Below the pieces are notes generated by a model that saw nothing but the letters and a program-made list of their open reading frames with translations, made no database searches and was not told the DNA's origin. A stretch of DNA of 64,000 bases from Eledone cirrhosa (taxonomy: Eukaryota). The DNA is taken from the NCBI GenBank assembly GCA_964016885.1, contig OZ024759.1, positions 24,428,001 through 24,492,000 of the forward strand. The letters run 5' to 3'. Below, piece after piece: positions 30,317 through 30,399 of the stretch. The translations under genes and the position numbers were made by a program. Numbering within the stretch: the stretch's first letter is position 1; each line of letters begins with the position of its first letter.

Positions 30317-30399
30317 ACCTTTACCGATCGGTTTCGAATCCCAAAAATAAATGGGGGCCATACGGCCTTCGTTGCAAAGAGAGATTCTCGTCAGAAGGT
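30317..30399 (-). ncRNA. Complete type I hammerhead ribozyme motif
   Basis: ACCUU-CUGACGA-GAAUCUC...GGGAUUC-GAA-ACCGAUCGGU-A-AAGGU: 5 bp stem I, 7 bp stem II, palindromic stem III, GUA triplet. Confidence 0.85.

Follow-up and report, generated by a model that had tools for sequence, protein, structure and literature searches.

A hammerhead motif in the Lbx intron of Eledone cirrhosa lies in a truncated copy of a young tandem repeat, a likely retrozyme

A hammerhead motif on the minus strand of Eledone cirrhosa contig OZ024759.1 lies where it would be transcribed as part of the gene Lbx, which raises the question of whether it cuts or regulates the Lbx transcript or is there by accident of insertion. 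The window, the whole 64,000-nt stretch that was analysed (OZ024759.1:24428001-24492000; genome 3.0 Gb), contains the first exon of the gene and about half of the following intron:

57542..59657, minus strand: Lbx coding exon 1 with a phase-1 GT donor; the start codon position is counted from the open frame
1..57541, minus strand: window part of the Lbx intron, with its acceptor at OZ024759.1:24370019

The homeobox exon (exon 2) starts at OZ024759.1:24370018 on the minus strand, 58 kb past the window start and in a phase matching exon 1, giving an intron of 115,523 nt from the exon 1 donor. Exon 2 shares 91% identity with an LBX1-like protein of Octopus vulgaris, and its matches are mostly named LBX; in the O. 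vulgaris protein the two exons are adjacent and joined in frame as here. As exon 1 and the homeobox exon are in matching phase on the minus strand, the motif is sense within the predicted Lbx pre-mRNA, in agreement with the initial annotation, which had placed it on the Lbx sense strand inside the intron. Exon 1 is very long at ~700 codons, with homopolymeric Asn, Thr, His, Gln, Pro and Ser runs between conserved motifs. The window also carries LINE-like reverse transcriptase fragments at 15411-15893, 16718-17065 and 37267-37979, two of them with weak RVT_1 matches; a repeat search of the window returned microsatellites only.

The motif itself has three parts that matter for what follows:

30317..30399, minus strand: type I hammerhead motif with canonical core, G-C closure and GUA triplet, from sequence
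30323..30332, minus strand: stem III, a 10-nt palindrome giving a 3-bp hairpin as a monomer and a 10-bp duplex as a dimer, from computed folding energies
30343..30380, minus strand: loop II, 38 nt, from sequence and folding

Stem I has 5 bp (ACCTT at 30399-30395 with AAGGT at 30321-30317, minus strand) and is followed by the core CTGACGA (CUGACGA in RNA) at 30394-30388, a 7-bp stem II (30387-30381 with 30342-30336) closed by G10.1-C11.1, and the GAAA box at 30335-30332. Stem III is formed by the palindrome ACCGATCGGT (equal to ACCGAUCGGU) at 30332-30323, with two pairs past A15.1-U16.1, and the GUA triplet puts the predicted cut site between 30322 and 30321. The motif thus has the CUGANGA and GAAA boxes, the NUH triplet and stems I-III of a type I hammerhead, open at stem I, and the canonical core nucleotides, G-C pair closing stem II and 10-nt palindrome at stem III that had been read from the letters were all located. 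The computed energy of the palindrome is -0.9 kcal/mol as a hairpin and -16.6 kcal/mol as a self-duplex. In the 64-kb window a helix-checking descriptor found 16 motifs, where 30 block-wise dinucleotide shuffles averaged 0.03; the motif is real, beyond chance occurrence. There was no hammerhead among the 2 Rfam matches to the motif stretch at E up to 10, nor among the 150 matches listed of 639 for the whole window, where microsatellite matches dominate; the 38-nt loop II may be the reason. The minimum-energy fold of the 83-mer (30317-30399) differs from the ribozyme fold, with a z of -1.2.

Sequence comparison places the motif in a short piece of repeat between TA microsatellites:

30242..30402, minus strand: 3'-terminal stub of a 484-nt tandem element, unit positions 1-161, between (TA)n tracts
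29594..29643, minus strand: second stub of the same family, 50 nt, unit positions 114-163, 88%, without hammerhead
30405..30715, no strand: inverted-duplication arm flanking the stub, 86% over 316 nt against the other arm, with a 58-nt perfect non-microsatellite block
29873..30188, no strand: the other arm, predicted to pair with 30405-30715 in the pre-mRNA

The stub (~160 nt) is 97.5-98.1% identical to its five closest copies, a divergence of ~2%. In the predicted minimum-energy fold the two arms are joined by 237 bridging pairs and the hammerhead is left in the loop. Such an inverted flank duplication was seen in only 3 of the 52 loci described below and is not a rule of the family. A donor-like AG/GT ~20 nt after the cut site (window ~30300, minus strand) recurs in three related families (L054, L068), as does an ATG-AAA-like stretch just before stem I; in sense orientation the AG/GT could act as a cryptic 5' splice site in the Lbx pre-mRNA. 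A reading frame from the upstream ATG to this site was considered as a shared feature and rejected, as the frame differs across the three families.

The element is abundant. A 133-nt query gave 939 candidates in the genome, of which 40 were scored and represent 40 other places at 95-98% identity, while an exact 23-nt piece of the family occurs 1,209 times (649 on the plus and 560 on the minus strand; control 0). The unit is found in head-to-tail arrays of up to 10 units, spaced 483-485 nt, with one type I hammerhead each and a GC content of 38%, and stops interrupt all six frames of the doubled unit. Units are 99.6% alike within an array (6 arrays) and 92.0% between loci (136 pairs), though local expansion at the DNA level is another possible source of such near-identity. 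By these comparisons the family is young and the window motif is one of more than 1,200 copies, not specific to Lbx. The 23 nt following the cut site are present in 1,297 copies, and 1,215 of these (94%) continue unchanged upstream across it, so that the template is continuous there and insertions are not piled up at the cut. Among 107 anchored copies from the sampled loci, which were picked on hammerhead sequence, 87 keep an intact hammerhead, and the circular fold of the unit has a z of -2.7 against 40 shuffles. Related hammerhead tandem families with units of 459 and 542 nt (L054:6700-7228; L068:2796-3407; L173-L187) keep the hammerhead stems with different letters. The 459-nt unit is 63% identical to the 484-nt unit over 217 nt by BLAST, and a MAFFT alignment of the three families did not bring the stems into register. 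A search for RNA data sets containing the unit listed none. When reads from four sequencing runs of unspecified kind were aligned to one natural array, they assembled into numerous short contigs with three joints of low depth, and no joint was a splice or a telling circle junction. Among the papers listed in literature searches on octopus hammerheads and cephalopod retrozymes, none describes the family.

How the copies came to be where they are was read from 52 mapped loci, 24 from the best matches (after removal of the window and of five duplicates by overlap) and 28 chosen by hand among the first 100 pattern matches listed. The 3' ends are fixed at two places in the unit, 42 of 77 runs ending at unit 161-165 and 27 at unit 264-279, and by a strict pattern a TA run directly follows 54 of 66 fixed ends. 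The 5' ends are scattered, as in 5'-truncated copies, an inverted piece is present in 21 of the 52 loci, and direct flank duplications with a score of at least 30 were found in none. The arrays are dispersed, and each has a variant of its own as well as the fixed 3' ends. Penelope-like elements are described as leaving a footprint of two fixed 3' ends with a tail, 5' truncation, inverted 5' copies and AT-rich targets (PMC11167929; 10.1101/2021.04.23.441226), and the same two-end, inverted pattern is shown here by autonomous Penelope elements and by the 542-nt family (2,481 candidates). None of the 52 loci continues into a Penelope ORF, and none has terminal repeats enclosing an RT and GIY-YIG ORF; all arrays sampled consist of the unit joined to further copies of itself. 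An antisense frame of 538 codons in L156 extends beyond the element and was discounted as reading through into the neighbour.

In the genome there are 10,597 GIY-YIG candidates, of which 150 were scored. A Neptune-type Penelope element at L053:2879-7048 (minus strand) encodes RT, CX4CxxC and GIY-YIG and carries a U3-A8 hammerhead with stems I and III similar to those of the 484-nt family. Its copies end in (TA)n 75-76 nt past the cut site in 4 of 10 cases and 141-143 nt past it in 3. The 484-nt family ends 75 nt past the cut in 31 of 102 copies counted and the 542-nt family 76 nt past it; 44 of those 102 copies lack a TA run for 320 nt, as internal units should. From these similarities the Neptune-type element would seem the best candidate helper. 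BLAST of the 484-nt unit against the repeat of this candidate found no significant similarity. A further Penelope-like element with a U3-A8 hammerhead lies at L058; in its family the 13 copies listed all carry GCAA where GAAA would stand.

Taken with the anatomy, the account of metazoan non-LTR retrozymes in PMC7229834 suggests a cycle for the family. Tandem arrays would be transcribed, and the hammerheads, paired through the palindromes of neighbouring units, would cut the transcript into monomers that are likely to be circularised. A Penelope RT/GIY-YIG protein would then nick (TA)n, prime internally at either of two sites, one 75 nt and the other about 185-195 nt past the cut, and copy round the template; early stops would leave stubs like the window copy. 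The dimer fold (-146.9 kcal/mol) is 7 kcal/mol better than that of two monomers (-139.9 kcal/mol). We consider it highly probable that this hammerhead belongs to a young tandem repeat with a protein-free unit of 484 nt, a 5'-truncated copy of which lies in a TA microsatellite within the Lbx intron; the repeat is likely a retrozyme copied by a Penelope-type enzyme, and the window copy likely a near-neutral passenger.

The initial annotation had proposed that the motif could cut the intron and affect Lbx output. This would seem doubtful for one member of a mobile repeat with over 1,200 copies. The predicted active-fold probability of the window copy is 3e-4, the lowest when set against 26 distinct intact variants (median 1.6e-2, minimum 3.9e-3), by energies that exclude tertiary contacts and Mg2+. 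Loop II, which in other copies forms a U-rich internal loop and a distal hairpin, is weakened in the window copy by its differences from the majority of copies. In three families pairing would be possible between the U-rich side of loop II and an A-rich stretch on the 5' side of stem I, though in differing register, and the 5' flank of the window copy is shortened by (TA)n where this candidate helix I/II contact would lie. The palindrome probably marks a dimer-assisted ribozyme, and no second copy of it was found within 157 kb, leaving the stub with no dimer partner in cis. As the active fold of the lone stub is predicted to be rare, little cutting of the Lbx pre-mRNA is expected. Given the great length of the intron, some accidental cutting may occur: transcription has 88.3 kb to go from the motif to the acceptor, which would be made 22-88 min later at an assumed 1-4 kb/min, in which time a rate of 0.001 per min would cut 2-9% of transcripts and one of 0.01 per min 20-59%.

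The annotation had extended its reading to eight more motifs in the window. Both core boxes are present in each of the eight, which all lie on the minus strand, but three do not satisfy the descriptor and the five accepted by it have no G10.1-C11.1 closure. Those that fail have their cores at 22794 (canonical stems I/III absent), 35068 (stem I reduced to 2 bp) and 42423 (stem II broken); the stretch 22740-22830 (minus strand) has the core boxes and a 4-bp G-C-closed stem II. The eight fall into several repeat families:

33998..34026, minus strand: minimal hammerhead of an autonomous Penelope-like family, inverted partner at 34124 (plus strand)
55794..55822, minus strand: hammerhead of the same Penelope-like family, partner at 55860 (plus strand)
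40846..40894, minus strand: hammerhead of another repeat family, with A-U closure and broken palindrome, by descriptor
42423 (minus strand, stem II broken), 52863-52917 (minus), 56919-56968 (minus), 41767 (plus) and 42657 (plus): relatives of the 40846-40894 motif

The motif of the Penelope-like family also follows RT/GIY-YIG ORFs in loci L056, L057 and L060. A near-perfect inverted repeat at window 2421-2650 and 2364-2707, centred on (TA)n, bears hammerhead elements in both arms. The list of eight held sense motifs only; 9 of the 16 descriptor matches in the window are on the plus strand. In the whole Lbx intron, a slightly looser descriptor gave 10 sense and 11 antisense motifs, with 6:5 in 41 kb of flank, and neither strand bias nor a shortage of sense motifs is seen in the intron. 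Hammerheads are spread very unevenly, with 21 in the 115-kb Lbx intron and 1 in 307 kb of two myosin regions.

A genome-wide test for strand depletion had also been suggested, and a small version of it gave a weak antisense excess in myosin genes. These were located by exon matches (755 kb in 19 stretches, 10 of them without any match, including 240 kb taken to be a single long gene) and contain 17 sense and 33 antisense motifs (p 0.033). The motifs cluster, and counted by insertion there are 5 sense, 12 antisense and 10 two-sided (p 0.14; 0.08-0.27 by cluster distance). The excess is a hint that sense copies carry some cost, and since the test has no control repeat, splice-like signals could explain the trend as well.

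A passenger of the same origin, by itself or together with the other sense motifs, might still cut enough of the nascent Lbx RNA to be measurable, as an unselected cost. We regard this as unlikely, though the canonical core and three stems are in place, the time before the acceptor is made is long at the assumed rates and the myosin excess points the same way. Retrozymes are reported as under-represented in Xenopus introns (10.64898/2026.07.22.740005), some invertebrate retrozymes with a similar stem III are reported to cut as monomers at 0.1-0.8 per min (PMC7229834), and splicing is lowered by fast intronic ribozymes but not by slow ones (Fong et al. 2009, cited in PMC10919898). The lowest predicted active fold of its family, the missing cis partner and the undepleted sense motifs of the Lbx intron argue against it, and any cut would fall in the loop of a long predicted hairpin holding both halves together. 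Of the published tests, lone Penelope-type minimal motifs did not cut in the account of PMC4209133, and 1 of 9 Xenopus dimers cut in that of 10.64898/2026.07.22.740005. A bolder form of the idea, which we rate a long shot, is that octopod hammerheads are so dense and introns so long that sense copies jointly cut a real share of nascent pre-mRNAs, Lbx included, ribozyme load being a selected cost or brake on long genes; the myosin antisense excess would then be its trace, and the Lbx intron would contribute 10 sense motifs.

Two further readings concern what the motif is for and where it came from. Co-option for the regulation of Lbx, of the kind suggested for the conserved ribozymes in introns of CPEB3 or RECK, would fit the sense orientation in a developmental gene and the intact core. 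The stub is only ~2% from its nearest copies, however, too young for an intact core to show selection, and 87 of the 107 anchored copies, from loci picked on hammerhead sequence, are intact too. Conserved examples are common to mammals or amniotes (PMC3088659), whereas this is a high-copy sequence ~2% diverged within E. cirrhosa and not a single locus, and co-option is in our judgement extremely improbable. Alternatively, the stub could be the terminal repeat of a rare, unsampled autonomous Penelope element, the tandems having arisen by DNA-level expansion with no RNA circle. Its two-end, inverted architecture is that of the autonomous elements, the loci read number 52, and satellite-type expansion is discussed in 10.64898/2026.07.22.740005. 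That the unit joins itself in every sampled array, with all 52 loci free of a Penelope ORF and dispersed arrays that each have their own variant and fixed 3' ends, makes this very unlikely. The reading as a passenger copy of a retrozyme is thus preferred.

On that reading the 484-nt family adds another to the many retrozyme families of this genome, and its position in Lbx is most likely incidental. Metazoan non-LTR retrozymes have been described by Cervera and de la Pena 2020 (PMC7229834) and by Li, Clavereau and Pollet 2026 (10.64898/2026.07.22.740005), the latter a preprint arguing that such elements are non-autonomous Penelope derivatives. Both argue the link from shared features, co-occurrence and phylogeny. 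The footprint seen here, with two fixed ends, inversions and the 75-76-nt spacing from cut to end found also in the Neptune-type element, adds sequence evidence on how Penelope proteins might move retrozymes, and the E. cirrhosa genome is well suited to a clean test of the cost of intronic hammerheads to host genes.

Judged from the genome sequence, the family would work like metazoan non-LTR retrozymes and has their sequence characters: head-to-tail units with one type I hammerhead each (the window copy being a sub-monomer stub), no protein coding in the doubled unit or the 52 loci, GC below 50%, a short palindromic helix III and scattered monomer derivatives. For them too, Penelope elements have been proposed as helper and origin (PMC7229834, 10.64898/2026.07.22.740005). 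At 484 nt the unit is above the 150-450 nt given in PMC7229834 and inside the 51-972 nt given in the preprint. Unlike the retrozymes described there, it has a long two-part helix II, is without a long direct target duplication and shows the Penelope-type two-end and inversion footprint in (TA)n. With the hammerheads in Penelope terminal repeats (PMC4209133, PMC11167929, 10.1101/2021.04.23.441226) it shares a 7-bp helix II, a 5-bp helix I, G10.1-C11.1 and a palindromic helix III, but its helix III has real pairs and there is no unpaired base between A9 and G10.1. It likewise resembles the Penelope-like elements of these sources in having a tail and two internal 3' ends, an AT-rich target and a 5'-truncated copy in inverted orientation, and differs in having no ORF and a tail of about 110 nt rather than 30-40. 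Like the RECK and C10orf118 hammerheads (PMC3088659) and the HDV-like ribozyme of CPEB3 (PMC10919898), the window motif is of a self-cleaving type and lies in sense in a long intron of an animal gene; those are described as conserved single loci with shown cleavage, whereas this one is a young copy of a high-copy repeat.
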